NCBI RefSeq assembly: GCF_000091665.1
Contig: NC_000909.1
Location: forward strand, 1 to 32,000
Direction: 5' to 3'
DNA length: 32,000 bases
Source: Methanocaldococcus jannaschii DSM 2661
Lineage (GTDB): Archaea; AGJL01; Methanococci; Methanococcales; Methanocaldococcaceae
The position numbers were made by a program, and so were the translations under genes. Under the pieces are notes generated by a model that did no database searches, was not told the origin of the DNA, and saw only the letters and a program-made list of their open reading frames with translations. Below, piece after piece: positions 378 to 16,754 of this stretch; the first letter of the stretch is position 1, and each line of letters starts with the position of its first letter.

Positions 378-2127
378 ATTAAAATCAGACCGTTTCGGAA
401 TGGAAATTTGCTCCTGCATTAGATGGAGGAGCGTATGTAGCGTATTAATTAAAATCAGACCGTTTCGGAATGGAAATTTTGCAGAGTTGTATTCTGGCAG
501 TGCGGATATTATAAATTAAAATCAGACCGTTTCGGAATGGAAAAATCTAATACAAACAGTGAAGATACTGAATACTGCGGAATTAAAATCAGACCGTTTC
601 GGAATGGAAAAACTGTCTCTTAACATATTCTGCAGTTTTACAACTTTCGAAATTAAAATCAGACCGTTTCGGAATGGAAAGCATAATTGATGAGGCTAAT
701 AGAATAGCACCTAATAGAATTAAAATCAGACCGTTTCGGAATGGAAAGATTAATGTAATACTTTTTTATAAATTTATAATGCAAAATTAAAATCAGACCG
801 TTTCGGAATGGAAAGTAATTTCTACGACTTGGATTACTTCACGATGGAAATCAAAATTAAAATCAGACCGTTTCGGAATGGAAAGATAGAAGAATTTGAT
901 GCTTTATTTGGATGTTTGAAGAATTAAAATCAGACCGTTTCGGAATGGAAAGCAGCTTGTGGCGATACCTTCAAGTTCAAAATTTTTCCCCATAATTAAA
1001 ATCAGACCGTTTCGGAATGGAAAGACTAACTTTAATTATATCCCTTTCAGCTTCCTCATCATAAATTAAAATCAGACCGTTTCGGAATGGAAAGTAGAAA
1101 TTGTCTCAATAACTGCGTTTGTTGATGGAACAATTAAAATCAGACCGTTTCGGAATGGAAAGCAAACAGCATTATAACAATTGATAGACAGAAATTCAGA
1201 ATTAAAATCAGACCGTTTCGGAATGGAAATATTGGTGAAGTAGTTGCTTATGACTTAGATAGTGGAATTAAAATCAGACCGTTTCGGAATGGAAATGACA
1301 TAATTAAAGCATAATAATACTTTAACGCTTCTTTTAAATTAAAATCAGACCGTTTCGGAATGGAAATTATATCTCCCTCCTTAACCTTTTTTTATTTAAC
1401 ATTCCCATATTAAAATCAGACCGTTTCGGAATGGAAATATCTACTTGGAACTACAACACTCACAGGTAAATCTAATATTAAAATCAGACCGTTTCGGAAT
1501 GGAAATAAGTTAAAACAATGGTTAATGTTAAGGGGGATTAAGCTGTATTAAAATCAGACCGTTTCGGAATGGAAATGACATAATTAAAGCATAATAATAC
1601 TTTAACGCTTCTTTTAAATTAAAATCAGACCGTTTCGGAATGGAAATTATTACCACCCTCTTGCTTTTAAAAAGCTTTCTAATTCTTCATTAAAATCAGA
1701 CCGTTTCGGAATGGAAATAATCCAGATTTGAATTGTTCCCAAGCATTACCGAGCCAATTAAAATCAGACCGTTTCGGAATGGAAATTTTTTATCGAAACC
1801 TTCTAAAATCATATCTCATCCCCCCAATTAAAATCAGACCGTTTCGGAATGGAAATCTTATTTTAAGTTACAAAAAAGTTTATAGTGGTTAATGATTAAA
1901 ATCAGACCGTTTCGGAATGGAAATCTTATTTTAAGTTACAAAAAAGTTTATAGTGGTTAATGATTAAAATCAGACCGTTTCGGAATGGAAATCTTATTTT
2001 AAGTTACAAAAAAGTTTATAGTGGTTAATGATTAAAATCAGACCGTTTCGGAATGGAAATCTATGTCTGTGATAGTTACAATATTATTTCCTATTTTATT
2101 AAAATCAGACCAATTCGGGATAAAACG
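378..2127 (+). CRISPR. CRISPR array: 25 intact 30-nt repeats (ATTAAAATCAGACCGTTTCGGAATGGAAA[T/G/A]) plus one degenerate terminal repeat, with 25 spacers of about 36-42 nt
   Basis: I located repeat starts by hand at 378, 448, 515, 582, 652, 719, 786, 856, 923, 995, 1065, 1133, 1201, 1267, 1338, 1409, 1477, 1547, 1618, 1689, 1757, 1827, 1895, 1963 and 2031. The degenerate repeat starts at 2098 (23/30 match). The repeat 3' end ..AATGGAAAT resembles the 8-nt crRNA 5'-handle source of type I/III systems, which supports + strand transcription. Confidence 0.97.
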
Positions 2128-2169
2128 TTTTTCTTTATTAAACTCAATTACTCTTTTCTACACTCTTTT

Positions 2170-2199
2170 ATTAAAATCAGAAGAGAAATGAGCATTAAA
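2170..2199 (+). repeat. Vestigial CRISPR repeat (first 12 nt, ATTAAAATCAGA, intact; the rest decayed)
   Basis: It lies 72 nt after the degenerate repeat at 2098, which is one repeat-spacer period. About 16/30 positions match the consensus. Confidence 0.45.
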
Positions 2200-2215
2200 A
2201 TAAAATACTAAAAAT

Positions 2216-3343
2216 TCACTCAAAAATCTCTTTTATAATCCCTAAAGCTTTCTCTATATCTTCATATTTTGTAGCATAGCTGAACCTAATATAGTTAGCT
2301 CCATTCTCACCAAATGCAACTCCAGGAACACATAAAACCTTATTCTCAATCAATTTCTTAGCTACCTCTACCCCATCTCCATACTCAGAAACATCTGGGA
2401 ATATATAGAATGCCCCATCTGGCTTATTGACTTTAAAGATATCCTTCAATCCATTATAGATTAAATCTCTCCTCATTTTAAACTCTCTAACCATATCCTC
2501 AACACACTTTTGACTACCTCTTAAAGCTGCTAATGCCCCATATTGAGCAAAGGTTGTAGCACATGCAAAGCTATACTGATGAATCTTAATCATATTGTTG
2601 ATTAAATCTAACTCCTTATTTAGTTCATCAGAAACAGCCAAATATCCAATCCTCCATCCAGTCATGGCATAGGTTTTAGAGAAACCGTTAATTAATATGC
2701 ATCTATCAGTAAATTGCATTGGAGAGTAATGCTTCTTATCGTAGATAATCTTATCATAGACTTCATCTGAAACAATAATTAGATTATAATCCTCAGCAAT
2801 CTCTGCCAAGCCTTTTATGGTCTCCTTATCATAGACTTTTCCAGTAGGATTTGATGGAGAGTTAAATATTATTAGCTTTGTTTTTTTAGTTATTGATTCT
2901 TTAACTTTCTCTAAATCAATATTAAAGTTTTCATCTAAATCTATATTCTTAATCTTACCCTCAGCAAACTCTGTTAGTGAAAAATAAGACACAAAAGATG
3001 GATTTGGAATTAAAACCTCATCCCCTCTGTCAATCAAAGTCATAATAGATAACATTAACGCCTCTGAAGCTCCACAGGTAACAATAATATTGTCCTTATC
3101 AACGTCTAAGTTGTAATCATCCTTTAACTTATTGCTTATCTCCTCTCTAAGCTCTGGAATTCCATTGTTTGGAGAGTAGTGAGTTTTCCCCTCATCTAAA
3201 GCCCTTTTTGCAGCCTCAATGATATGCTTTGGAGTGTCAAAATCTGGCTCTCCTATTCCTAAATTTATGCAATCAGATGTAGCTAAGTTAAATATCTCCC
3301 TAATTGCTGATGGTTTTATATTTTTGCATCTACTGCTTATCAT
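2216..3343 (-). CDS. Class I PLP-dependent aminotransferase (aspartate aminotransferase-like)
   Basis: 375-aa ORF. It has the NSPSNPTG motif and the PLP-lysine motif SKTYAMTGWRIGY, and a full-length fold-type I profile. Its start overlaps the upstream gene's stop (ATGA). Confidence 0.9.
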   Translation of the reverse strand: MISSRCKNIKPSAIREIFNLATSDCINLGIGEPDFDTPKHIIEAAKRALDEGKTHYSPNNGIPELREEISNKLKDDYNLDVDKDNIIVTCGASEALMLSIMTLIDRGDEVLIPNPSFVSYFSLTEFAEGKIKNIDLDENFNIDLEKVKESITKKTKLIIFNSPSNPTGKVYDKETIKGLAEIAEDYNLIIVSDEVYDKIIYDKKHYSPMQFTDRCILINGFSKTYAMTGWRIGYLAVSDELNKELDLINNMIKIHQYSFACATTFAQYGALAALRGSQKCVEDMVREFKMRRDLIYNGLKDIFKVNKPDGAFYIFPDVSEYGDGVEVAKKLIENKVLCVPGVAFGENGANYIRFSYATKYEDIEKALGIIKEIFE

Positions 3344-4071
3344 TCTCTCACATCCTCAAAGTATAGCTTTTTATAAAGCTCTATAGCCTTAATCTTTGCA
3401 GTTTCTGATGGCTCATCAATTAGGTTAGAGTTTTTATAGCTCTCATCTAACAATACACCCAACTCATAAAAATAGCTTTTTATTTTCTTCTTATAACTCT
3501 CATCAACTGGCTTTTTATTTACTTTACATTCAAAAAGATAGCTCACAATATCCTCATCGTAGCAATCTAAGCATCTAAATGAGCTAAAATCTGATTTAAA
3601 TTCTCCACTCTCTAAGCATAAAATACCTTGATAATAAGCTCTCAAAATATATAAAAGTGTCTTTGGATTGTTATAACTTTCTTTCTCACACAATTTTTGT
3701 AGAGGTTTGGCAAATCCCTTCCAATGATGATATAGCTTTTTGCAAATGCAATTATAAGCTATCCCTTTAACATCTTCATGATACTTCGATGAATACAAAA
3801 CCTTATCAGATAAGGCTATCTCAATAAAGTTAGCATTTGGCTTTAATAACTCTCTTAAAAACTTTCCAAGCTCAAAGCTAACAAAATCACACTTTCCAAA
3901 CATTTTATTTATAACTTCTTCTTCCTTGCTTTTATATAGGCAGTTCTTAATAAATAGCTCTCTATCCAAGATATGAGCGCCTCTGATATCTACATCACTT
4001 GGATTTGGAATCCCATACAAATCACTGCCAGAGATAACGACGAATATTGGAACTTCCATAAATATCTCCAT
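3340..4071 (-). CDS. Predicted nucleotidyltransferase (Pol-beta superfamily, RlaP-like)
   Basis: 243-aa ORF. The N-terminal 'ISGSDLYGIPNPSDVDIRG' matches the GS..yG...SDxD signature of this predicted nucleotidyltransferase family. It is translationally coupled to the aminotransferase. The true start could be the second Met (4059). Confidence 0.7.
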   Translation of the reverse strand: MEIFMEVPIFVVISGSDLYGIPNPSDVDIRGAHILDRELFIKNCLYKSKEEEVINKMFGKCDFVSFELGKFLRELLKPNANFIEIALSDKVLYSSKYHEDVKGIAYNCICKKLYHHWKGFAKPLQKLCEKESYNNPKTLLYILRAYYQGILCLESGEFKSDFSSFRCLDCYDEDIVSYLFECKVNKKPVDESYKKKIKSYFYELGVLLDESYKNSNLIDEPSETAKIKAIELYKKLYFEDVRE

Positions 4072-4099
4072 GCTATTGGATTTTTAATATCTCCAAAAT

Positions 4100-4116
4100 T
4101 ATTAGAAATTCTAATT
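4100..4116. promoter_or_regulatory. Palindromic operator-like site TATTAGA-AAT-TCTAATt (copy 1 of 4)
   Basis: 13/14 half-site positions are palindromic. It lies 29 nt upstream of the 4071 start codon of the minus-strand operon. Confidence 0.5.
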
Positions 4117-4251
4117 GGTAGTATTTTATAATAGGACTTATGTAATTTTTTATATAATTTTTTATAATTGGTATTTTGATGCTCTATTAATGGGTGGTTG
4201 TCCAATTAGAGAAACATTGAGAACTGATTATGGAGAATATTTAGCGTTTAG

Positions 4252-4566
4252 TTAATTAAAGGTTTATTTGGATTGTTTGTTGACGCATTGATTGGATATA
4301 TTATATTTAGTGCTACTGGAAATATTTCAGCGTTCCCATGGTTTGTTGATAATGGTTTTCACCAATCCCAGGAGACCCATTAGGCAATTATTGGAGGTTT
4401 TGGAGTTGGATTCTTTTCAGTTGTTCAAGGGGGCTGTCCTCTAAGGAATTATATTATGGCTGCTGAAGGAAACAAAACAGCTATAGCCTATCTATTTGGA
4501 TTAGCTGTTGGGGCAGTAATATTCCATAAAATAGTTGCTTCAACGGTTAAGGCAATCATGACTTAA
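4252..4566 (+). pseudogene. C-terminal remnant of a YeeE/YedE-like (sulfur/selenium transport family) membrane protein, interrupted by an in-frame TAG
   Basis: Hand translation of one frame gives GLFGLFVDALIGYIIFSATGNISAFPWFVDNGFHQSQETH*AIIGGFGVGFFSVVQGGCPLRNYIMAAEGNKTAIAYLFGLAVGAVIFHKIVASTVKAIMT*. The hydrophobic helices and the GG-C-P-x-R motif are typical of YeeE/YedE. There is no start codon or N-terminal half upstream. Confidence 0.5.
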
Positions 4567-4910
4567 ACTTTTTAATTTAAATTTTTATCTCTATAAGATA
4601 TGAAAATTTTTGATATATTGTAAAGTTATTTAAAACTAAGACCAGAAAATACAAGATGTCCAAATCTAAATGTTCGTAAAATTTTGTGTGGATGATATTA
4701 GCTTTTTTAATATCCAGTTAGTAATTAAATTTTTTACCAATAACTTTATATACTCCTATTTTGAGAAAAACCAGTGATTTTATCAGAGTTAGATTATTAA
4801 AAATAATAATTGTACTTTATTTATATATTCTCATAAGGTATTGAATATCAAAAGTCATCAACTTTCCTTAAAAATTTATTTCTCTTAACATTCTATTAAA
4901 TTGTGAGAGT

Positions 4911-5381
4911 ATGAAAGGAAAAAGAATAGCCATTGTTTCTCATCGCATATTAAATCAAAATAGTGTTGTTAATGGGTTGGAAAGGGCTGAAGGAGCTTTT
5001 AATGAAGTTGTTGAGATTCTTTTAAAGAATAATTATGGAATAATACAACTTCCATGTCCAGAGTTGATTTATTTGGGAATTGATAGAGAAGGAAAAACAA
5101 AAGAGGAATATGACACAAAGGAATACAGAGAACTTTGCAAAAAACTTTTGGAACCAATAATCAAATATCTGCAAGAATATAAAAAAGACAACTATAAATT
5201 TATCTTAATTGGGATAGAAAACTCTACAACTTGTGATATTTTTAAAAATAGAGGAATTTTGATGGAAGAATTTTTTAAAGAGGTTGAAAAATTAAATATC
5301 ATCATTAAAGCAATAGAATATCCAAAAAATGAAAAAGATTACAATAAATTTGTAAAAACTTTAGAGAAGATGATAAAATGA
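4911..5381 (+). CDS. Hypothetical protein, translationally coupled to the activase gene
   Basis: 156-aa ORF. Its stop overlaps the next start (ATGA at 5378-5381). 'IIQLPCPELIYLG' shows a weak resemblance to DUF523-type proteins, but I cannot assign a family. Confidence 0.7.
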   Translation: MKGKRIAIVSHRILNQNSVVNGLERAEGAFNEVVEILLKNNYGIIQLPCPELIYLGIDREGKTKEEYDTKEYRELCKKLLEPIIKYLQEYKKDNYKFILIGIENSTTCDIFKNRGILMEEFFKEVEKLNIIIKAIEYPKNEKDYNKFVKTLEKMIK

Positions 5382-6109
5382 TTTTAGGGATAGATGTTGG
5401 ATCTACAACAACGAAGATGGTTCTAATGGAAGATAGCAAGATAATTTGGTATAAGATAGAGGATATTGGAGTTGTTATTGAGGAAGATATTTTATTAAAA
5501 ATGGTTAAGGAGATTGAACAAAAATATCCAATAGATAAAATCGTTGCAACTGGATATGGAAGGCATAAGGTTAGTTTTGCAGATAAGATAGTTCCAGAAG
5601 TTATTGCATTGGGAAAAGGAGCTAACTATTTCTTTAACGAGGCAGATGGAGTTATAGACATTGGAGGGCAAGATACAAAGGTCTTAAAGATTGATAAAAA
5701 CGGAAAAGTTGTTGATTTTATCCTATCAGATAAATGTGCCGCTGGAACTGGAAAATTCTTAGAAAAGGCATTAGATATTTTAAAAATTGATAAAAATGAG
5801 ATAAATAAATACAAATCAGATAATATCGCTAAAATATCTTCAATGTGTGCTGTCTTTGCTGAAAGTGAGATAATAAGCTTACTATCAAAAAAAGTTCCAA
5901 AGGAAGGCATTTTAATGGGCGTCTATGAGAGTATAATAAATAGGGTTATCCCAATGACCAATAGGCTTAAAATTCAAAACATAGTGTTTAGTGGAGGAGT
6001 TGCTAAAAATAAGGTTTTGGTTGAGATGTTTGAGAAAAAATTGAATAAAAAACTACTAATTCCAAAAGAACCACAGATTGTTTGCTGTGTTGGAGCTATA
6101 TTGGTTTAA
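5378..6109 (+). CDS. BcrAD/BadFG/HgdC-type ATPase ('CoA-substrate-specific enzyme activase')
   Basis: The ASKHA-fold motifs GIDVGSTTTK and DIGGQDTK are present. DKCAAGTGKFLE and SMCAVFAESE carry the cysteines that bridge the [4Fe-4S] cluster in this family. Confidence 0.9.
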   Translation: MILGIDVGSTTTKMVLMEDSKIIWYKIEDIGVVIEEDILLKMVKEIEQKYPIDKIVATGYGRHKVSFADKIVPEVIALGKGANYFFNEADGVIDIGGQDTKVLKIDKNGKVVDFILSDKCAAGTGKFLEKALDILKIDKNEINKYKSDNIAKISSMCAVFAESEIISLLSKKVPKEGILMGVYESIINRVIPMTNRLKIQNIVFSGGVAKNKVLVEMFEKKLNKKLLIPKEPQIVCCVGAILV

Positions 6110-6110
6110 T

Positions 6111-7250
6111 TTACCTCTCAATATTAAATAGTGGTGGCAAACTGTTATCTACTCCCGGGATATAGCCTAATGTGTCTCTTATTTTTAGCTGCATTCTATG
6201 GAATATGTAAGCTAAAGGAATATCCATTGGGCATGCATCTTCACACTGCCCACAGTTTATACAACTTTGGGATATATGGCTCAATCTAATCCCTTGGAAT
6301 ATTAATGGATTTGGTGGGATTTTACCTTTTTCTTCAATGTAATCTTTTTCTAAACTACATTCAACACAGAAACATAAAGGGCAGTTATCCCTACAACCGT
6401 AGCATTTTATACATCGATTCCAATATTTTTTCCATTTTTCTAAGCTTGGATACTCTTCCTCTAAATGCTTCTTTTGGAATTTTTTAGCCAACTTTATCAT
6501 TATACTTTCAATTTTCTCCCTAACTTGTATTGCCTTCTCTGAAGGTTGTTTAATTTTAATATAACCATCTTTCTCAGCATCTTCAACTAATTTTCTCCCT
6601 CTCTCTGAACAGATTTCAACAAATGTCCAACCCTTTTCAGCCCCCCAATTCCCGCAGGCTAAATCTGCCATCCTTGGAATCATTATTTCGCATCTTTGGC
6701 AATTTTTCCTCCTACCAAAGCCTTTCTCCTCCAATTCTTCTATTTTTACAGCCTTATGCTCCCCATTCTTTAATTCGATAATAAACTTACCCTTATCAAT
6801 CTCTTCCTTAACAACATCTAATGGATTAACTTCATAAAATAATTCAATCATCTTCATGGCTGTTATTGGACTTATCGTTCCTCCACAATTCAAACCAATC
6901 ATATAAACATTGTCTAAGTTTATTTGATTTAATTTTGCCAATTCTCTAATAGCCATTGCATCACATGGCTTTGCAGGAACGGCAATCTTTTTGTCTGCTA
7001 AGTATTTTGCAATCAACTTTCCAAAGTTTGTAGGAGCACAGTGTAAAGAACCAGCAGTCTCAACCAACTCATTAGAATTCGTTATAAATGTTGGAATTCC
7101 ATCATAAACATCTTCTCCTCTCTTTAAAGCTAAAACGCCGTCAACAAGCTTTTTATCTAATAGATATTTAAATAAGGCTGTAACAGCACCACCACACTCA
7201 GCCCTCCTCAAAATCCCATTGTCTGTAGCTTGAATTAAAACGTATTTCAT
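6111..7250 (-). CDS. FrhB/FdhB-family (F420-binding) subunit with a C-terminal 2x[4Fe-4S] ferredoxin domain
   Basis: 379 aa. The N-terminus resembles the beta subunits of F420 hydrogenase/formate dehydrogenase. Ferredoxin motifs are CIKCYGCRDNCPLC and CINCGQCEDACP. An RBS aaggtgat precedes the ATG. Confidence 0.85.
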   Translation of the reverse strand: MKYVLIQATDNGILRRAECGGAVTALFKYLLDKKLVDGVLALKRGEDVYDGIPTFITNSNELVETAGSLHCAPTNFGKLIAKYLADKKIAVPAKPCDAMAIRELAKLNQINLDNVYMIGLNCGGTISPITAMKMIELFYEVNPLDVVKEEIDKGKFIIELKNGEHKAVKIEELEEKGFGRRKNCQRCEIMIPRMADLACGNWGAEKGWTFVEICSERGRKLVEDAEKDGYIKIKQPSEKAIQVREKIESIMIKLAKKFQKKHLEEEYPSLEKWKKYWNRCIKCYGCRDNCPLCFCVECSLEKDYIEEKGKIPPNPLIFQGIRLSHISQSCINCGQCEDACPMDIPLAYIFHRMQLKIRDTLGYIPGVDNSLPPLFNIER

Positions 7251-7275
7251 GATATCACCTTAGTTATTTCTTTTA

Positions 7276-7300
7276 AACAGGACTTTCACAGTTTATATAT
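7276..7300 (-). promoter_or_regulatory. Promoter module ATATATAAA-CTGTGAAAGTCCTGTT (TATA box plus a conserved 16-nt element), read on the minus strand
   Basis: It ends 25 nt upstream of the ATG at 7250. It is 24/25 identical to 31192-31216, upstream of fruD. Confidence 0.55.
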
Positions 7301-7337
7301 CCTCAAGGTATTTAGATGCCTAAAAGCGTCAATTTCC

Positions 7338-8474
7338 TTATAGAAGTTTATTCCTGTGAATATCCTGTTGTATATCCTCTAAGGAGTTAAAGCCCAAATC
7401 ACTACCAAGCTTTTCAGCTAAGCTTTTTATTATAAGCCAATCATCCATAGCATCTCCAGGAGGATTTACAGCTTTATTTATTTTCTGAATTCTCTTATCA
7501 GTGTTTATAAACGTCCCATCCTTTTCAGCCCAGCATGTTGAAGGCAAAACAACATCTGCCATCTCCGCTGTCTCAGTCATTATAATATCTTGGACAACTA
7601 AAAATTCAACATTTTTTAAGACATCTTTATCAACTAAAGCTGGATTCTCTCCCATTATGTATAAGAACTTTGAATTTTTTAATAATTCAAAATATTCATC
7701 CTTATTTAAAGCAGGGATGCCTATAAGTGTTGCTCCAACTGTATTGCAGTGCTTCGCAACTGGCAAAACCTTAGCTTTATTTTCCTTTGCAGTTTTAATT
7801 ATCTCATCAACATTTACTGGGGCATTAATTATGATAATGGTATTTTTATCGACATTACTCAAATCAACACCTAAATAACTATCAACCTTCACAAATTCAT
7901 CGGCATTTAGCTTTAGGATTTCCTTCTCCTCTGTGTTAAAAATTGTTACCTTAGATCCTTTTTCTTTTGCCTTAATAACTTTTCTACCAATTAACGCATG
8001 TTCAGAGAAGACATCACCAATAATTATAATGTTTTTTGCGTTCTCAATATCATCAATTGTTGTAGAAACCTCAGCATAATTTACCTTTGGAGAGTTGCAG
8101 ATACAATGCCCAATTTTAGCTTTTAAGCTATCAACCAACTTTTTTAATGCGTAGTTATCTTCATTTGTGCATTTTCCAGAGGCTATGAAGGTTATATCAT
8201 CAGCATTATAATTCTTTAATTTCTCTGCAATAAAGCTTAAAGCCTCATCCCATGTAGCTTCAACAAGCTTTCCATTCTTCTTAATCAATGGCTTTTTTAA
8301 TCTCTTTTCATGATAGATTATTTTATAGCTATTTTTTCCATTTGAACAGTTTTTACCTTCATTTATTGGATGTCTCTTGTATGGATAAGTGCCAACAACT
8401 TTATCATCTTTAACAATCAAATCAATTCCACATCCAACACTACAACCTGGGCAGATAGTATGAACAACTTTCAT
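7338..8474 (-). CDS. Molybdopterin-oxidoreductase family protein, FdhA-like but only about half length
   Basis: 378 aa. It has the N-terminal 4Fe-4S Mo/W-bisPGD-type Cys motif ([10 protein letters not shown] ... C at 'GKNCSNG') and Rossmann-like MGD-binding segments. It lacks the C-terminal dinucleotide-binding domain and ends at a TAA. Confidence 0.8.
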
Positions 8475-8724
8475 AATATCACCTAAATGTTCTATTTGTC
8501 ATAAAAATTCTCTGTGTTTATTTTTGTCTAAGTTTTAATTTTGATTTCTAGCTTTCCTTTATCTTACTAATCTTAGATTTTTGATACCTTTTTTAATATT
8601 TATTATGTCAATGATATTACTAATATATTAATACTATTTTCAACTATCATATATAAAATTTACTACTTAATTTAAATTATTATTACTTAAATAAGATAGA
8701 ATTTTAAATAAGTATTACTACTAT

Positions 8725-8741
8725 TATTAGATTTTCTAATA
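8725..8741. promoter_or_regulatory. Palindromic operator-like site TATTAGA-TTT-TCTAATA (copy 2 of 4)
   Basis: Perfect 7+7 inverted repeat in the divergent 8475-8883 intergenic region. Confidence 0.5.
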
Positions 8742-8840
8742 TCAACTAAACCATTAAAAATTTTGAAGATAAGATTTTTATGATTAGAAATATACTCTTT
8801 TAATGAATTTCTTAAAAAAATAACCCAAATCTTCATAAGT

Positions 8841-8857
8841 TATTAGAAAATCTAATA
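8841..8857. promoter_or_regulatory. Palindromic operator-like site TATTAGA-AAA-TCTAATA (copy 3 of 4)
   Basis: Perfect 7+7 inverted repeat, 26 nt upstream of the ATG at 8884. It is flanked by the same 'agt' as copy 4. Confidence 0.55.
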
Positions 8858-8883
8858 ACTAAATAGATATTAAATTTGGTGAT

Positions 8884-10005
8884 ATGATGAAATTAAAGGC
8901 AATTGAAAAGTTGATGCAAAAATTCGCCAGTAGAAAAGAACAGCTATATAAGCAAAAAGAAGAAGGTAGAAAAGTTTTTGGAATGTTCTGTGCCTATGTT
9001 CCAATAGAAATAATTTTAGCAGCAAATGCAATCCCAGTTGGTTTGTGTGGAGGTAAAAATGACACAATCCCAATAGCAGAGGAGGATTTGCCAAGAAACC
9101 TATGCCCATTAATAAAATCATCCTATGGTTTTAAGAAGGCAAAAACCTGCCCTTACTTTGAAGCATCTGATATAGTTATTGGAGAAACTACCTGTGAAGG
9201 AAAGAAGAAGATGTTTGAGTTGATGGAGAGATTGGTGCCAATGCATATAATGCACCTCCCACACATGAAAGATGAAGATTCTTTGAAAATCTGGATTAAA
9301 GAAGTTGAAAAGCTAAAAGAATTGGTTGAGAAAGAGACTGGAAATAAAATAACAGAGGAAAAGTTAAAAGAGACAGTTGATAAAGTAAATAAAGTTAGGG
9401 AGTTGTTTTATAAACTCTATGAATTGAGGAAGAATAAACCAGCTCCAATTAAGGGTTTAGATGTTTTAAAATTATTCCAGTTTGCCTATTTATTGGATAT
9501 TGATGACACAATAGGGATTTTAGAGGATTTAATTGAGGAGTTAGAGGAGAGAGTTAAAAAAGGAGAAGGTTATGAAGGAAAGAGAATTTTAATAACTGGC
9601 TGTCCAATGGTTGCTGGAAACAATAAGATTGTTGAAATTATTGAGGAAGTTGGAGGAGTAGTTGTTGGTGAAGAAAGCTGCACTGGAACAAGATTCTTTG
9701 AAAACTTTGTTGAGGGCTATAGCGTAGAGGACATTGCAAAAAGATACTTTAAAATCCCATGTGCTTGTAGATTTAAAAACGATGAGAGAGTTGAAAATAT
9801 AAAGAGATTGGTTAAAGAGTTGGACGTCGATGGAGTTGTTTATTACACTTTGCAGTATTGCCATACATTTAACATAGAGGGAGCTAAGGTAGAGGAGGCA
9901 TTAAAAGAGGAGGGCATTCCAATTATAAGAATTGAAACTGACTATTCTGAAAGTGATAGAGAGCAGTTAAAAACAAGGTTGGAGGCATTTATTGAGATGA
10001 TTTAA
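8884..10005 (+). CDS. 2-hydroxyacyl-CoA dehydratase D-component / BcrC-BadD / double-cubane-cluster-protein family Fe-S protein
   Basis: 373 aa with family-typical organisation and many conserved-looking cysteines (FCAYVP, GLCGG, NLCPLI, TTCEGKK, TGCPMV, ESCTGT, QYCHTF). An RBS ggtga precedes the ATG. Confidence 0.85.
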
Positions 10006-10027
10006 ATTCTTTCTTTTTACTTTTAGT

Positions 10028-10044
10028 TATTAGATTTTCTAATA
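10028..10044. promoter_or_regulatory. Palindromic operator-like site TATTAGA-TTT-TCTAATA (copy 4 of 4)
   Basis: Identical to copy 2. It lies immediately upstream of a TATA-like 'cttttatatat' (10049-10059) and 30 nt upstream of the 10075 ORF start. Confidence 0.55.
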
Positions 10045-10074
10045 TATACTTTTATATATCTTAATTTCCTATTA

Positions 10075-10737
10075 ATGTTTTGTGGGAGTATGATAGCTAT
10101 ATGCATGCGTTCCAAGGAGGGGTTTCTTTTTAACAACAAGTTGATGGATTGGGGATTGCATTACAACCCAAAGATAGTAAAAGACAACAACATTATTGGT
10201 TATCATGCTCCAATTTTGGATTTGGATAAAAAAGAGAGCATTATTATTTTAAAAAACATAATTGAAAACATTAAGGGTAGGGATTATCTAACAATCCACT
10301 TGCACAATGGAAAATATGGGAAAATTAACAAAGAGACATTAATTGAAAATTTATCGATTGTTAATGAATTTGCAGAGAAAAATGGAATAAAATTATGCAT
10401 AGAGAATTTAAGGAAAGGATTTTCATCGAATCCGAATAATATAATTGAGATAGCCGATGAAATTAACTGTTATATAACGTTTGATGTTGGGCATATTCCT
10501 TATAATAGAAGGTTGGAGTTCTTAGAAATCTGCTCAGATAGAGTTTATAACTCTCACGTTTATGAGATTGAAGTTGATGGAAAGCACCTACCACCCAAAA
10601 ATCTCAACAATTTAAAGCCGATATTGGATAGGCTCTTAGACATTAAATGTAAAATGTTTTTGATTGAATTGATGGATATTAAAGAGGTTTTAAGAACTGA
10701 GAGAATGTTAAAAGATTATTTAGAGATGTATAGGTGA
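10075..10737 (+). CDS. Xylose-isomerase-like TIM-barrel protein (sugar-phosphate isomerase/epimerase or AP-endonuclease-2 fold)
   Basis: 220-aa ORF with the pattern 'LTIHLH ... LCIENL ... FDVGH' typical of this fold. The start is uncertain. In-frame ATGs at 10090, 10105 and 10144 fit better with the TATA at about 10050. Confidence 0.7.
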   Translation: MFCGSMIAICMRSKEGFLFNNKLMDWGLHYNPKIVKDNNIIGYHAPILDLDKKESIIILKNIIENIKGRDYLTIHLHNGKYGKINKETLIENLSIVNEFAEKNGIKLCIENLRKGFSSNPNNIIEIADEINCYITFDVGHIPYNRRLEFLEICSDRVYNSHVYEIEVDGKHLPPKNLNNLKPILDRLLDIKCKMFLIELMDIKEVLRTERMLKDYLEMYR

Positions 10738-10742
10738 AATAA

Positions 10743-11573
10743 ATGATATTTAATGAAAATACTCCAAATTTTATTGATTTTAAGGAATCCTTTAAAGAAC
10801 TACCCCTATCTGATGAAACGTTTAAAATAATTGAAGAGAATGGAATAAAGCTGAGAGAAATTGCTATTGGAGAGTTTTCTGGGAGAGATAGCGTAGCGGC
10901 AATAATCAAAGCCATCGAAGAAGGGATAGATTTTGTTCTGCCGGTTGTTGCATTTACTGGGACTGACTATGGAAACATAAATATATTTTACAAAAACTGG
11001 GAGATTGTCAATAAAAGAATCAAAGAAATTGATAAGGATAAAATTTTACTGCCATTGCATTTTATGTTTGAGCCAAAACTCTGGAATGCATTAAATGGGA
11101 GATGGGTGGTTTTATCTTTTAAAAGATATGGTTATTACCGTCCATGCATTGGATGCCACGCATATTTAAGAATAATTAGGATTCCTCTGGCAAAGCACTT
11201 AGGAGGAAAGATAATTAGTGGAGAGAGACTTTATCACAATGGAGATTTCAAAATTGACCAAATAGAGGAGGTTTTAAATGTCTATAGCAAAATCTGCAGA
11301 GATTTTGATGTTGAGTTAATTCTACCTATAAGATACATAAGAGAGGGAAAGAAAATCAAAGAAATCATAGGAGAAGAATGGGAGCAAGGGGAGAAGCAAT
11401 TTTCATGTGTATTTAGTGGAAACTATAGAGATAAAGATGGAAAGGTAATTTTTGATAAGGAAGGGATTTTAAAGATGTTAAATGAATTTATCTACCCTGC
11501 TTCAGTTGAGATTTTAAAAGAAGGCTACAAAGGAAACTTTAACTATTTAAATATCGTTAAAAAGCTTATTTAG
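10743..11573 (+). CDS. Uncharacterised protein with a PP-loop-like (adenine nucleotide alpha-hydrolase-like) N-terminus
   Basis: 276 aa. 'FSGRDSVAA' resembles the SGGxDS PP-loop, and 'PCIGCHAYLRI' is a CxxCH motif. It starts 5 nt after the previous stop. Confidence 0.65.
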   Translation: MIFNENTPNFIDFKESFKELPLSDETFKIIEENGIKLREIAIGEFSGRDSVAAIIKAIEEGIDFVLPVVAFTGTDYGNINIFYKNWEIVNKRIKEIDKDKILLPLHFMFEPKLWNALNGRWVVLSFKRYGYYRPCIGCHAYLRIIRIPLAKHLGGKIISGERLYHNGDFKIDQIEEVLNVYSKICRDFDVELILPIRYIREGKKIKEIIGEEWEQGEKQFSCVFSGNYRDKDGKVIFDKEGILKMLNEFIYPASVEILKEGYKGNFNYLNIVKKLI

Positions 11574-11580
11574 TGAGAGA

Positions 11581-12867
11581 ATGAGGGCTATTTTAATTCT
11601 ATTGGATGGTTTGGGAGATAGAGCATCCGAAATTTTGAATAACAAAACTCCTCTACAATTTGCAAAGACTCCAAATTTAGATAGATTAGCTGAAAACGGC
11701 ATGTGTGGCTTAATGACTACGTATAAAGAAGGCATCCCTTTAGGGACAGAAGTAGCTCATTTTCTACTTTGGGGCTACTCCTTAGAAGAATTTCCAGGGA
11801 GAGGAGTTATTGAAGCTTTAGGGGAGGATATAGAGATAGAGAAAAATGCCATTTATCTGAGGGCATCTTTAGGCTTTGTTAAAAAGGATGAGAAGGGATT
11901 TTTAGTTATAGACAGAAGAACAAAAGATATAAGCAGAGAAGAGATTGAGAAGTTGGTTGATTCCCTCCCTACATGCGTAGATGGATATAAGTTTGAGCTT
12001 TTCTATTCTTTTGACGTCCATTTTATATTAAAAATTAAAGAAAGAAATGGATGGATTTCAGATAAAATCTCAGATTCTGACCCATTTTATAAAAATAGGT
12101 ATGTTATGAAAGTTAAAGCAATAAGAGAGCTTTGTAAAAGTGAGGTAGAGTATAGCAAGGCAAAAGACACTGCAAGGGCGTTAAATAAATATCTTTTAAA
12201 CGTCTATAAAATTCTACAAAACCATAAGATAAATAGAAAGAGAAGGAAGTTGGAGAAGATGCCAGCAAACTTTTTATTGACAAAATGGGCATCAAGATAT
12301 AAGAGGGTAGAGAGCTTTAAAGAGAAATGGGGAATGAATGCTGTTATTTTAGCAGAAAGCTCACTATTCAAAGGATTAGCTAAATTCTTAGGTATGGATT
12401 TTATAAAAATTGAGAGCTTTGAGGAAGGGATAGACTTAATTCCAGAGTTGGATTATGATTTCATCCATCTGCATACAAAAGAAACAGATGAAGCAGCTCA
12501 CACTAAAAATCCATTAAATAAGGTTAAAGTCATTGAAAAGATTGATAAGCTTATAGGAAATTTAAAGCTTAGGGAGGATGATTTACTGATAATAACTGCA
12601 GACCATTCAACTCCCTCTGTAGGGAATTTAATCCATTCTGGAGAAAGTGTGCCAATCTTATTTTACGGCAAAAATGTTAGAGTTGATAATGTTAAAGAAT
12701 TTAATGAAATAAGTTGTTCAAATGGGCATTTAAGAATAAGAGGGGAGGAATTGATGCATTTAATTTTAAACTATACGGATAGGGCTTTACTGTATGGTTT
12801 AAGGTCTGGAGATAGGTTGAGGTATTATATTCCAAAGGATGATGAAATAGATTTATTAGAGGGATAA
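11581..12867 (+). CDS. Alkaline-phosphatase-superfamily metalloenzyme, archaeal cofactor-independent phosphoglycerate mutase (ApgM) paralogue
   Basis: 428 aa. Family motifs are 'ILILLDGLGDR', 'HTKETDEAAH' and 'ITADHSTP'. It starts 7 nt after the previous stop. Confidence 0.85.
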   Translation: MRAILILLDGLGDRASEILNNKTPLQFAKTPNLDRLAENGMCGLMTTYKEGIPLGTEVAHFLLWGYSLEEFPGRGVIEALGEDIEIEKNAIYLRASLGFVKKDEKGFLVIDRRTKDISREEIEKLVDSLPTCVDGYKFELFYSFDVHFILKIKERNGWISDKISDSDPFYKNRYVMKVKAIRELCKSEVEYSKAKDTARALNKYLLNVYKILQNHKINRKRRKLEKMPANFLLTKWASRYKRVESFKEKWGMNAVILAESSLFKGLAKFLGMDFIKIESFEEGIDLIPELDYDFIHLHTKETDEAAHTKNPLNKVKVIEKIDKLIGNLKLREDDLLIITADHSTPSVGNLIHSGESVPILFYGKNVRVDNVKEFNEISCSNGHLRIRGEELMHLILNYTDRALLYGLRSGDRLRYYIPKDDEIDLLEG

Positions 12868-12868
12868 C

Positions 12869-13462
12869 TTGATAGGAAAATTAAAGAATCTTTTTAAATT
12901 AGGAAAAGGGAAAAAAGAAGAAAAAGCTAAAAAGAGTTTAGAAGGAAAAGGATTAATTATATTTGAAAACACAAAAGACGCAATGAGAGCAGAGAGCATT
13001 TTAAAAGACAAATATAAAATTAAGGTTGTTGCTCCCCCTCCAGAAATTAGAGAGGGCTGTGATTTGGCAATAGAGTATGAATTAATAGATGAATTTGGAA
13101 TTAAAAGAGAATTAGAAAGTAATGATATAAAGCCGTTGAAGTTTATCTCTCTAAATGATTATTCTTTAAAACCTCTTGAATTAATAAAAGTTAAAGAGGT
13201 AGATGGCTTTATATTGGTCAGATGTGGAAATATGAAAATAACTATTGATAAAGAGGGAAATATAGTCAATATCTCTGGTGGAGGATGTCCAGATGTACCT
13301 TATTTAGCATTAAAATTAAAAGGAAGGAATATTAAAGATATTAAAGAGGAAGAAACACCAAAGAATTTGGGATTTACATTGTGTGCTTATATATTAAATA
13401 AGGGGTCTTCCCAACGTGGTCATTCATGGACAATTATAGATTTTGAGGTACTTTCCATTTAA
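12869..13462 (+). CDS. DUF3343-like (putative S/Se carrier-like) domain protein with an extra C-terminal domain; the last ~20 codons probably read into IS sequence
   Basis: 197-aa ORF with a TTG start 1 nt after the previous stop. 'LIIFENTKDAMRAESILKD...VVAPPPEIREGCDLAIEY' matches the small DUF3343 fold pattern. From about 13400 the sequence changes to GC-richer, structured, IS-type sequence. Confidence 0.7.
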   Translation: MIGKLKNLFKLGKGKKEEKAKKSLEGKGLIIFENTKDAMRAESILKDKYKIKVVAPPPEIREGCDLAIEYELIDEFGIKRELESNDIKPLKFISLNDYSLKPLELIKVKEVDGFILVRCGNMKITIDKEGNIVNISGGGCPDVPYLALKLKGRNIKDIKEEETPKNLGFTLCAYILNKGSSQRGHSWTIIDFEVLSI

Positions 13463-13640
13463 ATCAACTGTATAGACCATCAGAGGGAAATCAAAGATTT
13501 GAACAAAATCCTTCGGATTTTGTAGCTCGAACCTTCGGTTCGATTTCCTTACTGGAAGCTTCGCTTCCACGTTGGGATTGGGCTTCACCAGTCTCAACTC
13601 CCCTCTGGGTTCATTGGAGAGTAAATCATCGACCTCAGCC
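13400..13640 (-). ncRNA. Candidate omega-RNA (TnpB guide RNA scaffold) overlapping and extending past the tnpB 3' end
   Basis: This is a locally GC-enriched patch in an AT-rich genome. It has the hairpins aaaatcc-ttcg-ggatttt and cgaacc-ttcg-ggttcg. An 11-nt long-range inverted repeat (tcccaacgtgg at 13409-13419 against ccacgttggga at 13567-13577) is also present. Its position relative to tnpB matches known omega-RNAs. Confidence 0.4.
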
Positions 13641-14836
13641 CCAGCCACGGGAACTCCAACTCCGCCTAAGAGTTTTTTAGCTAATTCAACTCCTCTTTTA
13701 AAAATATTATAGCATCTGACAAACTGTCTATCAAAAATTCCACACTTATCGCATTTTACAACCTGCCCCTCTTGGGACTTCATTTTACTCCCACATACGG
13801 GGCAGGTTTTTGAAGTATAGTGAGGATTAACGTATAGGACAACACTCTTATACTCCAACTTTTTCGCTATTTTTCTCCAGTTAGTTCTATCCAAATTCCT
13901 ATTAAAATTCGAATTCTTATCATACATGTTGAATTTATCTAAATCTTCAAAGATGAAAATCGCATCTGGAAAGAGTTTAGACAACTGAGAAGTTAGCTTG
14001 TTAATAAAATCTTCGACTCGGTTTTTTCTCCTATTCCAGTATTTTTTCAATAATTTACCAATTCTCTTCGGAGCTTTTTTATAGATAGATTTTAGCTTAT
14101 CGGGTATGGTATCATAAACTCTCTTAATTCAATGTAATTCAGACAAATCTACTCTAATCCAGCCCTCTTCTGGATGATACAAATCTAACGACTTTAGATT
14201 ACTATCAACACCAATAACAACCTTTTTATCTAATAAATTTAACGGTTTTTTAAAGGTTATTAATGCCTCGTTATTCTTTAAAATAACTTCTCCAATGTTA
14301 AAATTTTTTAACTCTTTCGAAAAACCACTCATCTTTAATGTTTAAAATTAAATACTCTTTCTCGGTTTTATTGTAATTCTTATAATCCCATTCTTTCTAT
14401 CGTATTTCATCAAGGTAGTTTTAACTCTAACAAAAGGTCTTTTGAATATCGGTTTATTTTTCTTTCTATTAACGTTTAAATAGTTTGATTTCCAACTCTC
14501 TATTGCTGAATAAGCTGTCTTAATAGCTCCATCGACATAGTGAGAGGCAAACTCCCAGCCCTCTAATAAACGATTTCTCAACTCTCTTTTGAAATCATTG
14601 TCCTTTGGAATTTTAGGGATTAGTCGAGTAGTTGTGTAATATTTGTATTTCTTCTTTCCTATTTTGTATCGATGTTTAACTACCTTTTCCTTCCAGTTGA
14701 TGTTTTCCCAAATAATATCGATAGCTCTTTGAGAGATTTTTATAAACTCATCAGGTAAGTTTTTTAAATCGTGGTTGTGTTTAACCTTATAAGTCAATAC
14801 AATTTCGGTTGGGAGTTTATTCTTTTTCTTTGGCAT
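13424..14836 (-). pseudogene. tnpB: tnpB (OrfB/RNA-guided nuclease family) interrupted by three in-frame stop codons and no frameshifts
   Basis: The three track ORFs (14348-14836, 14129-14332, 13424-14050) are all in one frame. Stops are TAA at 14348-14350, TAA at 14342-14344 and TGA at 14129-14131. Motifs are RuvC-I 'VIGVDSN', RuvC-II 'IFIFEDLD', Zn finger 'CPVCGSKM...CDKCG' and a RuvC-III region 'FDRQFVRCYNI'. Confidence 0.8.
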
Positions 14837-15458
14837 CCTCCTCCCTTACGATTTCTTTAACTGTTTTTGTAAGCTTTTTATACTTATGAGAATGCATTCC
14901 GTAAAGTTTTCCAGCAAAGTGAGAAACGATTGTTATTAAGTCTTCTACTAACTCTTCCTGTGGTGTCTTATGCTTTTTATTTATGATTACAATTTCCGTT
15001 CCGTAAGATTTAAAGAATTCCTTTAACGTTTCAAAGCCAAATCTCGTTAATCTATCTGGATAGGCAATTATTACCTTCTCAACCTTTCGATTCATAACCA
15101 TTTTTAAAAGTTTTTTGTAATTTTTCCTCTTTTCGTTTAAACCGCTACCAATATCTTTCAGTATTTGTATATCCCAACCGTTTTCCTCTGCATAGGATTT
15201 TATTAGTTGTATTTGCCTCTCTAAATCATCTTTTTGCGCGTTAAATGAAACTCTTGCATAGCCGATAATTTTTCTTTGTTCTTTATCCTTAATTCCTAAG
15301 ATTCGTTTTATCTCACTTTCTGGAACTCTTCTTTTTCCTCCTAAGGTTCTGATACATTTAATCTTCCCTGCTTTATCCCATCGTTGCAACGTTTTAATCG
15401 AAACTCCCAAGATTTTCGATGCCTCTTTTAAAGTATAATGTCGCTCCATAATCATCAA
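14817..15458 (-). CDS. tnpA: IS607-type TnpA: serine recombinase with an N-terminal MerR-like HTH
   Basis: The HTH is '[26 protein letters not shown]', followed by the resolvase catalytic region '[18 protein letters not shown]'. Confidence 0.9.
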
Positions 15459-15497
15459 TGCCTATATTTGTCTATCTAATATATAACAGTTTCGGAA

Positions 15498-15807: not shown

Positions 15808-15862
15808 TAGCATATCATAATAAACAAACCGTAGTTCTCATTACACATTTAAATGTTTTTAT

Positions 15863-16636: not shown

Positions 16637-16754
16637 AAGCTTTATTAAACGCTTAACTCTCGGAATTTTTGATTTTTTGATAACGCTATCACCTCCACTA
16701 TTTTTTATCGATATATTAAAGTTAAGAGTTTATATATTTATCTATTTGATGGGA

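Follow-up and report, generated by a model that had tools for sequence, protein, structure and literature searches.

Methanogens have been known since the 1990s to switch genes according to selenium supply, and the regulator HrsM has been known since 2004; the negative element of Methanococcus voltae and the binding of HrsM were reportedly defined in work by Noll in 1999, Sun and Klein in 2004 and Quitzke in 2018. Palindromic operators are also familiar from nitrogen control in this order, where NrpR operators (GGAA-N6-TTCC) lie at the nif and glnA promoters of Methanococcus maripaludis. Methanocaldococcus jannaschii is regarded as selenium-dependent, and we know of no back-up isoenzymes in this organism. 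HrsM, which according to published work represses frc and vhc when selenium is sufficient, is the one regulator experimentally tied to the selenium-depletion response (PMC11097638; PMC5322559). In M. maripaludis JJ, just 51 genes are induced upon selenium depletion, and the report describing them gives no shared promoter motif, the words 'motif' and 'operator' being absent from it (Funkner 2024, PMC11097638). A selenium gene neighborhood of YedE, YedF, DUF3343, LysR_Se and an HgdB-like protein with its activase has been described separately, with STRING links that tie the HgdB-like and activase genes to LysR_Se, YedE and DUF3343 (Lin et al., 2015, PMC5322559).

An earlier note on the window, by which we mean the whole 32,000-nucleotide stretch of DNA analyzed here (M. 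jannaschii genes MJ0001 to MJ0013), had pointed to four intergenic copies of a palindrome, TATTAGA-N3-TCTAATA, three of them a short distance upstream of an ORF. A pattern scan of the window bore this out. Exact copies are found at 8725-8741 (TATTAGATTTTCTAATA), 8841-8857 (TATTAGAAAATCTAATA) and 10028-10044 (TATTAGATTTTCTAATA), and a copy with one mismatch (13/14) is found at 4100-4116 (TATTAGAAATTCTAATT). All four lie between ORFs, and copies 3 and 4 do have the 5' flank 'agt' in common. The distances of 26-30 nt given in that note hold if the first ATG is taken as the reference: copy 1 is 28 nt from the start of the MJ0002-like nucleotidyltransferase gene at 4071 (minus strand), copy 3 is 26 nt from 8884, and copy 4 is 30 nt from 10075. 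When up to two mismatches were allowed, six matches were observed, now including 4696 and 15465, compared to 1.07 expected, and none of 100 dinucleotide shuffles of the window yielded six or more. A weight matrix trained solely on sites from other species ranked the four reported copies and 4696 above every other position in the window. These five scored between 17.6 and 22.1, the next-best position scored 12.3, and the maximum under a Markov null averages 12.2. The match at 15465 was rejected as a member of the motif (matrix score 7.1). The four-copy palindrome is therefore confirmed as a real feature of the window, with a full consensus of TATTAGA-WWW-TCTAATA and an invariant core of ATTA-N7-TAAT.

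The distribution of the motif across related genomes is uneven. In 351 kb of Methanococcales DNA, of which 14% is non-coding, all 19 copies with at most one mismatch (19/19) reside in non-coding DNA. The motif is also kept at orthologous promoters in Methanocaldococcus, Methanothermococcus and Methanococcus, where it stands at a fixed distance from the TATA box amid diverged flanks. An alignment of TIM-barrel promoters from eight genomes (Methanocaldococcus, Methanothermococcus, M. voltae and one M. maripaludis-like contig) shows TATTA, TAAT and TTTATATAT invariant at fixed spacing within flanks that cannot be aligned. Across 29 sites ATTA and TAAT are invariant, although this is partly circular as the sites were gathered by pattern matching. 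A matrix trained on Methanocaldococcus alone was additionally run on 20-kb loci of other genera, and its best matches fell at the promoters of the DCCP, TIM-barrel, ABC-transporter binding-protein and hdrA genes; the nine matches scoring at least 14.5 were all at DCCP, TIM-barrel or binding-protein promoters, and the best scores in L214 (10.8) and L215 (13.0) were within the range of shuffled maxima. The vhcD and hdrA genes have canonical copies in Methanocaldococcus sp. 28A, sp. 16A and M. vulcanius, and M. igneus vhcD has none. Taken together, the motif occurs more often than expected by chance, is confined to non-coding DNA and is conserved at orthologous promoters. The density and conservation checks support the suggestion of the earlier note that a dimeric HTH regulator with a small regulon may use the palindrome as its operator, acting at or beside the TATA box or transcription start.

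The candidate operators differ in their surroundings. Copy 1 (4100-4116) lies before the genes for an RlaP-like nucleotidyltransferase and a class I/II aminotransferase (MJ0002- and MJ0001-like, 2216-4071, minus strand; Pfam), and a TATA-like element at 4124-4133 on the minus strand (TTTTATAATA on the plus strand, TATTATAAAA on the minus strand) is found 7 nt from it. The resulting order of TATA, site and ATG would place the predicted MJ0002 transcription start inside the operator. Copy 1 is conserved as AATTAGAATTTCTAATA in the orthologous contigs L220 and L223, and the block 'tataaaatactacc' together with the site is retained in L220-L223. In these four metagenomic relatives the copy is part of a divergent promoter shared with a Sec-containing selD gene, which refines the earlier assignment to the nucleotidyltransferase operon alone. 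A candidate fifth copy, weaker and with two mismatches (TATTAGCTTTTTTAATA, 4696-4712), precedes the TudS-like/activase operon (MJ0003-MJ0004-like) by 198 nt. Its matrix score of 17.6 is the fifth highest in the window, and in M. indicus a weak site is found 65 nt before the activase gene; whether the 4696 copy belongs to the regulon is uncertain.

Copies 2 and 3 both lie upstream of the gene for a DCCP reductase of the HgdB/HGD-D family (MJ0007-like, 8884-10005, plus strand; Pfam PF06050), named in the sources as a double-cubane-cluster-containing anaerobic reductase. Copy 3 (8841-8857), which extends to a perfect 10-3-10 palindrome at 8838-8860, is located 20 nt upstream of the GGTGAT ribosome-binding site of this gene. 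It is conserved before the orthologous DCCP gene in L134, L128, L135-L139 and L216, and a site is present at the DCCP promoter in all Methanocaldococcus genomes examined, despite differing neighbor genes; weaker sites are found at this promoter in M. maripaludis (L132) and M. okinawensis (L131). Copy 2 (8725-8741), a perfect copy 116 bp upstream of copy 3, had been placed in the divergent region of the FdhA-like gene. It is indeed intergenic, but it is probably not an operator of that gene: the equivalent position at -117 carries a site in L136 (TATTAATTTTTCTAATA) and a half-conserved one in L138 and L139, and a mapped deletion junction lies directly to the left of copy 2. These positions suggest that copy 2 is probably a distal operator of the DCCP promoter. 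Matrix scans of the window and of the relatives' loci revealed no operator copy belonging to the short Cys-type FdhA-like and FdhB-like genes themselves (MJ0006- and MJ0005-like, 6111-8474, minus strand; Pfam). By gene order, these two genes are the tail of a Sec-free vhc-hdrA-fwdB cluster present in M. igneus (L215) and M. vulcanius (L216), and mapping of the deletion showed that the Cys isoforms of vhc, hdrA and fwdB are missing from this locus in M. jannaschii.

Copy 4 (10028-10044) is perfect and ends 5 nt upstream of the consensus TATA box of the TIM-barrel operon (TTTTATATAT, 10050-10059, plus strand), an invariant block in the promoter alignment. The conserved start of the TIM-barrel gene, also that of RefSeq, is the ATG at 10090, 45 nt from copy 4 and 30 nt past the TATA box. 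The operon (MJ0008 to MJ0011-like, 10090-13462, plus strand; Pfam) encodes the TIM-barrel protein, a hypothetical protein, an ApgM-like metalloenzyme and a DUF3343 protein that is Se/S carrier-like according to Pfam. In relatives, sites also precede vhcDGAB, hdrA, an iron-type ABC transporter and selD, and the vhcD and hdrA genes with canonical copies are Sec-free Cys isoforms, since VhcA carries DPCLSC.

Many of these genes have orthologs that respond to selenium in M. maripaludis JJ, and the gene orders around the orthologs match between M. maripaludis and the site-bearing loci. Upon selenium depletion, log2 changes were +5.84 for the HgdB ortholog MMJJ_07100, +5.47 for the TIM-barrel ortholog MMJJ_09720, +2.11 for MMJJ_09730, +2.76 for MMJJ_09740 (ApgM), +2.28 for the DUF3343 gene MMJJ_12990, +5.87 for the AfuA-type MMJJ_09780, +13.8 for vhcD and +10 for hdrA; MMJJ_07110, MMJJ_09770-09800 and vhcDGAB were also induced (PMC11097638). 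The M. maripaludis list of selenium-induced genes contains no ortholog of MJ0002, MJ0001 or the activase (PMC11097638), and sps (selD) is unaffected by selenium supply in that species (Funkner 2024, PMC11097638). By orthology to M. maripaludis, we propose that the regulon marked by the motif is the selenium-starvation regulon, and M. jannaschii would be expected to respond in the same way. More tentatively, and at somewhat short of even chances, this regulon may extend across all Methanococcales and persist in M. jannaschii despite the loss of vhc, hdrA and fwdB from the locus. Its conserved core would then consist of DCCP and its activase, the TudS-like desulfidase, the TIM-barrel/ApgM-like/DUF3343 operon and the ABC transporter, forming an uncharacterized pathway for selenium scavenging or recycling, with a single LysR-type sensor whose targets include selD.

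Pfam and further checks agreed with the earlier note that the window holds no regulator gene. MJ0300 of M. jannaschii is presumably a LysR-family protein. The likeliest factor at the site is probably the LysR-type HrsM or its Methanocaldococcus ortholog. The LysR dyad T-N11-A, a loose criterion, fits the palindrome: in TATTAGAnnnTCTAATA, T3 and A15 are 11 nt apart. In L220, where the contig is long enough, selD is followed, tail to tail, by a gene for a 279-amino-acid regulator with an HTH_1 domain.

A different regulator could nevertheless bind the same operators and govern the same regulon, responding either to selenium by another route or to a signal that correlates with it, for example sulfur or persulfide status, redox state or H2 supply. 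To this alternative we give a minor though real share of the probability. The best-characterized HrsM target, the frc-vhc intergenic region of M. maripaludis, lacks a canonical copy: in strain C5 (L214) it contains weak matches of 9.7 to 10.8, within the range of shuffled maxima, and several isolated half-sites, including ATCTAATAAC beside the vhcD ribosome-binding site. The L220 regulator resembles LysR proteins in its HTH alone and has an unrecognized C-terminal domain; hmd, which is also regulated by H2, adjoins sites in L136; and the route of selenium sensing is unknown according to Funkner 2024 (PMC11097638). Against such a regulator, all site-bearing units with expression data belong to the set induced by selenium depletion, Methanocaldococcus has sites at vhcD and hdrA, relatives have them at selD, and no regulator other than HrsM has been linked to the response by experiment (PMC11097638; PMC5322559).

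We consider it likely that a selenium-responsive transcription factor controls the selenium-starvation regulon of the Methanococcales with the palindrome as its DNA operator. With sufficient selenium, this factor would occupy the site as a dimer or tetramer; once selenium is exhausted, it would leave the DNA, allowing induction of the genes. Two layouts can be distinguished, with transcription starts predicted from TATA positions alone. Class A includes the promoters of the TIM-barrel operon, of selD in relatives, and of DCCP in Methanococcus and Methanothermococcus. Here 5-7 bp separate the end of the site from a consensus TATA box downstream, so the site abuts the BRE and binding would exclude TFB and TBP. 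Class B includes the promoters of MJ0002 and, in relatives, of vhcD, hdrA and the gene for the ABC-transporter binding protein. In these the site comes after the TATA box but before the start codon, sometimes touching the ribosome-binding site, and binding would exclude RNA polymerase.

We infer that a protein binds the site and, from these layouts, that it represses rather than activates. Class A copies, placed immediately before the BRE and TATA box, do occupy the usual position of an archaeal activator, and a factor bound there might recruit TBP and TFB under selenium starvation in the manner of Ptr2 in M. jannaschii; Noll in 1999 is said to have found activator elements in the M. voltae frc-vhc region. 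We regard such an upstream activating sequence as improbable because class A promoters already have a perfect TTTATATAT box and because other copies lie past the TATA box or at the ribosome-binding site (L216:8402, L217:17143, L128:10054), where an activator could not work. Far less probable is a hairpin in RNA, or a hairpin or cruciform in DNA, that acts from a 5' or 3' UTR on translation, stability or termination. The predicted folding energy of copy 3 and its flanks is -8.9 kcal/mol at 37 °C (z = -6.9), and L221 and L222 share a symmetric change of G to A and C to T; however, no structure is predicted at the growth temperature of 85 °C, about 40% of the 29 sites have pairs 6/12 and 7/11 disrupted with no compensating change, the sites work in either orientation, and class A copies precede the TATA box and hence fall outside the regulated transcript. 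Finally, chance AT-rich matches, or remnants of a local duplication or mobile element (MITE ends), can be practically dismissed: although a scan of viral contigs shows that the bare 14-base pattern is not rare across very large collections, the window is rich in IS fragments and copies 3 and 4 form an inverted pair around the DCCP gene, the observed count was reached in 0/100 shuffles, sites recur at orthologous promoters of all three genera in unrelated contexts, and in genomes with the TIM-barrel gene elsewhere, the DCCP gene has no copy behind it.

A conserved operator of this kind would provide a direct handle on archaeal selenium sensing and would separate direct from indirect targets among the approximately 50 induced genes. 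It would connect selenium metabolism to uncharacterized genes, namely those of the double-cubane reductase and the TIM-barrel, ApgM-like and DUF3343 proteins, and it predicts a selenium response in M. jannaschii. The 17-bp sequence could serve as a probe for EMSA or pull-down, which would allow effectors such as selenophosphate to be tested; if the regulon reading is true, the operator is the missing tool for identifying the signal of the sensor.

Several known systems resemble this motif in part. The neighborhood of Lin et al. resembles the window, which encodes a DUF3343 protein, an HgdB-like reductase, its activase and a TudS-like protein, although function was predicted there from bacterial gene context and no cis-element was defined (Lin et al., 2015, PMC5322559). 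The Ptr2 (Lrp family) sites come from the same organism, M. jannaschii, and are likewise dyad-symmetric, with the class A position immediately before the BRE and TATA box. Ptr2, however, activates weak promoters by recruiting TBP, whereas here the TATA boxes match the consensus and other copies overlap the start region, a difference that points to repression. NrpR operators are similar in being palindromes at or just downstream of the core promoter, often with two copies per promoter, and in the proposed relief of repression by a metabolite signal, but they differ in sequence, half-site spacing, regulator family and signal (2-oxoglutarate and nitrogen status). Repression of frc and vhc by HrsM (LysR_Se) in M. 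voltae and M. maripaludis is the same physiological response, with vhc and hdrA as common targets and negative regulation, as proposed for the palindrome, from the promoter region; in addition, the core ATTA-N7-TAAT fits the LysR T-N11-A pattern, and a gene with a LysR-type HTH lies beside selD in a close relative. The published HrsM element, in contrast, comes from the Methanococcus frc-vhc intergenic region, which the present motif matches weakly, while the motif is sharpest in Methanocaldococcus and stands at genes new to HrsM: those of DCCP, the TIM-barrel and ApgM-like proteins, the ABC transporter, and selD/MJ0002.

Pattern matching recovered all four copies of the 17-bp palindrome TATTAGA-N3-TCTAATA reported in the earlier note, three of them perfect (copies 2, 3 and 4, at 8725-8741, 8841-8857 and 10028-10044) and one with a 13/14 match (copy 1, 4100-4116), and each was found to fall between ORFs, as had been claimed. 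The symmetry of copy 3 is perfect over 10-3-10 (8838-8860). With up to two mismatches allowed, the window holds six matches vs 1.07 expected, a number reached in 0 of 100 dinucleotide-preserving shuffles. When the window was ranked with a weight matrix trained solely on sites from other species, the top five positions in the 32 kb were the four copies and a candidate fifth at 4696-4712 (scores 17.6 to 22.1); the sixth scored 12.3, and the maxima of a Markov-chain null averaged 12.2. A two-mismatch match at 15465 was rejected as unrelated because of its low score (7.1) and its position at the start of an IS607-type recombinase. All 29 sites share the core ATTA-N7-TAAT, favour G6 and C12 and have only A or T at the centre, an apparent invariance that is inflated by the pattern-matched origin of the collection. 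When the bare motif was run against viral contigs, scattered single matches were found among the matches listed, and it was therefore judged too unspecific for whole-collection scanning.

In 351 kb of Methanococcales DNA, all 19 copies with one mismatch or fewer are non-coding, and none lies inside coding DNA; the non-coding share of this DNA is 14%, or ~26% once its higher A+T is allowed for. Three of the 19 had initially been scored as coding, due solely to spurious N-terminal ORF extensions. A matrix trained on Methanocaldococcus alone was applied to loci of other genera, and all nine matches scoring at least 14.5 fell at promoters of the double-cubane-cluster HgdB-like reductase (DCCP), the TIM-barrel protein or an ABC-transporter binding protein. 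The top scores in the loci from M. maripaludis C5 and M. igneus (10.8 and 13.0) were inside the shuffled-maximum range; they precede hdrA and the presumed DCCP gene. Cross-genus conservation rules out the reading of the copies as chance matches or as the relic of a mobile element.

The clearest case of motif conservation, as judged from promoter alignment, is the TIM-barrel promoter. In M. jannaschii, copy 4 precedes plus-strand genes for the TIM-barrel protein (10090-10737), a hypothetical protein (10743-11573), an ApgM-like metalloenzyme (11581-12867) and a DUF3343 / Se-S-carrier domain protein (12869-13462). These are inferred to be MJ0008 to MJ0011, the numbers used here being counted from the ORF at 14348-14836, which matches the Pfam family named MJ0013. 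The encoded TIM-barrel protein shares 100% identity with its M. jannaschii counterpart in RefSeq. IS fragments follow after 13462, and mobile-element debris spans 13424-17450 (a TnpB/Cas12f-like fragment, an IS607-type serine recombinase with a MerR-like HTH and two DDE transposase fragments). In all eight genomes compared (M. jannaschii, four other Methanocaldococcus including M. vulcanius, a Methanothermococcus contig, M. voltae and an M. maripaludis-like contig), 4-6 nt separate the motif from a downstream TTTATATAT; TATTA, TAAT and the TATA box are invariant, and the flanks on both sides are unalignable. The TIM-barrel gene is not adjacent to DCCP in the three genomes from outside Methanocaldococcus, and the site therefore belongs to the TIM-barrel promoter. 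In the Methanothermococcus contig (L217), about six short hairpin-forming repeats of 35-40 nt each (…cgagacaaa…tttgtcgattcacgaaa…) occupy 9519-9745, upstream of this promoter.

All Methanocaldococcus genomes examined have the site in the promoter of the DCCP gene (HGD-D family, inferred MJ0007, 8884-10005, plus strand) despite differing neighbour genes: FdhA-like in M. jannaschii, activase in L134 and M. indicus, TudS-like in L128, hmd in L136 and vhcD in Methanocaldococcus sp. 28A, sp. 16A and M. vulcanius. Weaker copies occur at the DCCP promoters of M. maripaludis and M. okinawensis: one abuts the TATA box, and the other is more downstream, ~30 nt before the start codon. The motif is thus kept at orthologous promoters across genera at both the TIM-barrel and the DCCP gene. 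The possibility that copies 3 and 4 are the inverted ends of a mobile DCCP cassette was rejected, since no copy lies downstream of DCCP where the TIM-barrel gene is elsewhere, and TIM-barrel genes carry their own site.

An unbroken vhcD-vhcG-vhcA-vhcB-hdrA(-fwdB) cluster diverges from DCCP in sp. 28A, in sp. 16A, in M. vulcanius and in L137. It bears canonical copies of the motif, one touching the vhcD ribosome-binding site and another 20 nt before hdrA. On its left, copy 2 is flanked by sequence (8553-8719) with homology to the intergenic DNA that follows fwdB in sp. 28A, sp. 16A and M. vulcanius, and on its right by sequence homologous to the DCCP upstream region, with the junction at ~8716-8724. 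From these homologies we infer that M. jannaschii lost vhcDGAB-hdrA-fwdB precisely, in a single deletion ending beside an operator copy, leaving the FdhA-like and FdhB-like tail of the selenocysteine-free cluster adjoining DCCP (short FdhA-like, inferred MJ0006, 7338-8474; FdhB-like, inferred MJ0005, 6111-7250; both minus strand). Copy 2, which the earlier note had placed in the divergent region shared with the FdhA-like gene, is therefore best read as a distal DCCP operator. In M. igneus and M. vulcanius, orthologues of this pair and a gene for 118-139 aa follow fwdB (L215:16240-20453 and L216:1-2133), and their position at the end of the selenocysteine-free vhc-hdrA cluster suggests that these two genes, too, encode a back-up enzyme free of selenium.

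The VhcA of this cluster is a cysteine isoform, as DPCLSC lies within a single polypeptide. The fruA gene of the window (29838-31100) has a TGA at that position: the ORF stops there, within RAYDI-U-ASCATH, and the gene is read through, so its product is an F420-reducing hydrogenase of the selenocysteine type. Upstream of fruA there is no operator copy. Nearby, the ORF at 28514-29473 was considered as selD and rejected, being ThiL, and two C/D-box sRNAs lie on the minus strand (22529-22583, Rfam sR2; 29554-29610, Rfam sR1). The cysteine isoforms of vhc, hdrA and fwdB are isoenzymes free of selenium, which Methanococcus makes only when selenium is limiting. In M. maripaludis JJ, only 51 genes are induced on selenium depletion, among them the cysteine isoforms vhcDGAB, hdrA and fwdB (log2 +9 to +13.8), the DCCP orthologue HgdB (MMJJ_07100, +5.84) and the PstS-like gene downstream of it (MMJJ_07110, +2.73), the TIM-barrel gene (MMJJ_09720, +5.47), a hypothetical gene (MMJJ_09730, +2.11), ApgM (MMJJ_09740, +2.76), ABC and ECF transporter genes (MMJJ_09770 to 09800, up to +5.87), DUF3343 (MMJJ_12990, +2.28) and hmd (+5.23) (Funkner et al., 2024; PMC11097638). 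These locus tags agree with the gene orders in loci L132, L219 and L214, so every site-bearing unit with expression data falls in the induced set. MJ0002, MJ0001 and the activase are absent from this set of 51 genes. The operator interpretation can thus be sharpened: comparison of sites with induced genes supports the motif as the mark of a predicted selenium-starvation regulon.

Copy 1 lies upstream of minus-strand genes for an RlaP-like nucleotidyltransferase (inferred MJ0002, 3340-4071) and an aminotransferase (inferred MJ0001, 2216-3343), directly upstream of which is a plus-strand CRISPR array (378-2060, at least 26 repeats, Rfam CRISPR-DR13). In four metagenomic contigs with MJ0002 orthologues, the divergent gene is selD, which shares copy 1 with the orthologue; the copy is kept in two of the four (L220 and L223), and the other two (L221 and L222) have a symmetric change, G to A and C to T, across the two half-sites. 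On the selD side, TTTTATAG begins 7 nt after the site. The L220 selD (1830-2869, minus strand) scores 579 bits vs the SelD model, and an in-frame TGA in its N-terminus (…LVKLHG-U-ACKL…) marks its product as a selenoprotein form. In M. maripaludis, sps (selD) is reported to be unregulated by selenium (PMC11097638). Homology between the window and these contigs ends at 4130, just past the TATA element beside copy 1, with no selD remnants there. The unusually long gap at 4117-4910 (~800 bp; the ORF-poor stretch is 4072-4910), with short broken ORFs lacking Pfam matches, therefore has the look of a rearrangement breakpoint. The idea that 4200-4570 holds a YedE pseudogene was dropped, the ORF fragments having no Pfam match. 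A weak site at 4795-4811, followed by the TATA box TTTATTTATATAT, lies ahead of the plus-strand operon for a TudS-related desulfidase (inferred MJ0003, 4911-5381) and a BcrAD/HgdC-type activase (inferred MJ0004, 5378-6109).

Sites take two positions relative to the promoter. In class A, 5-7 bp separate the end of the site from a downstream TATA box, which is of consensus type at the TIM-barrel gene and at DCCP of M. maripaludis and M. okinawensis and is TTTTATAG at selD; assuming the usual archaeal geometry, such a site would span roughly -53 to -37, abutting the BRE. In class B, the site falls downstream of the TATA box but ahead of the start codon: at MJ0002 the order is TATAAAAT, 6-7 nt, site, 28 nt, ATG; at vhcD and the binding-protein gene the site touches GGTGA; and at DCCP 5-20 nt separate it from GGTGAT. 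In either class, a protein on the site would keep the pre-initiation complex from assembling, and the consensus TATA boxes and the copies adjoining the ribosome-binding site favour repression over activation. That the palindrome acts instead as an RNA or DNA hairpin is unlikely, as no fold is predicted at 85 °C, ~40% of the 29 sites have pairs 6/12 and 7/11 broken with no compensating change, and each class A copy lies on the upstream side of its promoter. Promoters of DCCP hold a pair of copies separated by 80 to 158 bp (116 bp in M. jannaschii), an arrangement suggesting that an oligomer binds cooperatively or by looping. At both the DCCP and MJ0002 promoters (8868-8874 and 4084-4090), a shared AGATATTAAA contains a third half-site, TATTAAA (TATTAGA in relatives), exactly 10 nt past the palindrome on its downstream side; an oligomeric regulator may use it as an additional contact.

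Cross-genus conservation and confinement to non-coding DNA support the earlier proposal of an operator for a dimeric HTH protein, with binding predicted; the motif is a genuine, conserved predicted operator. Annotation bears out that the 32-kb window encodes no transcription regulator. In L220, a 279-aa protein with a LysR-type HTH_1 domain (922-1761, plus strand) is encoded tail to tail with selD, directly after dapF, and is a candidate orthologue of the LysR-type repressor HrsM (LysR_Se); against solved structures and NCBIfam, its HTH domain was found and nothing else matched. The EGRIN paper on M. maripaludis yielded no usable motif. A real rival is that a regulator other than HrsM binds the operator: the classic target of HrsM, the frc-vhc intergenic region of M. 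maripaludis, has only weak full matches (9.7 to 10.8) and otherwise holds scattered half-sites. HrsM leads as the only regulator known for the selenium response and one described as a repressor, acting when selenium is sufficient. In practice, the predicted operator is of use in working out how selenium is sensed and in giving functions to several conserved genes of unknown role. HgdB-like genes, activase, DUF3343 and YedE have been linked to LysR_Se by gene context (Lin et al., 2015; PMC5322559). With its half-sites spaced by one helical turn, the motif suits a dimeric HTH protein; it also conforms to the loose LysR T-N11-A rule and is probably the promoter-overlapping predicted operator of a LysR-type repressor.
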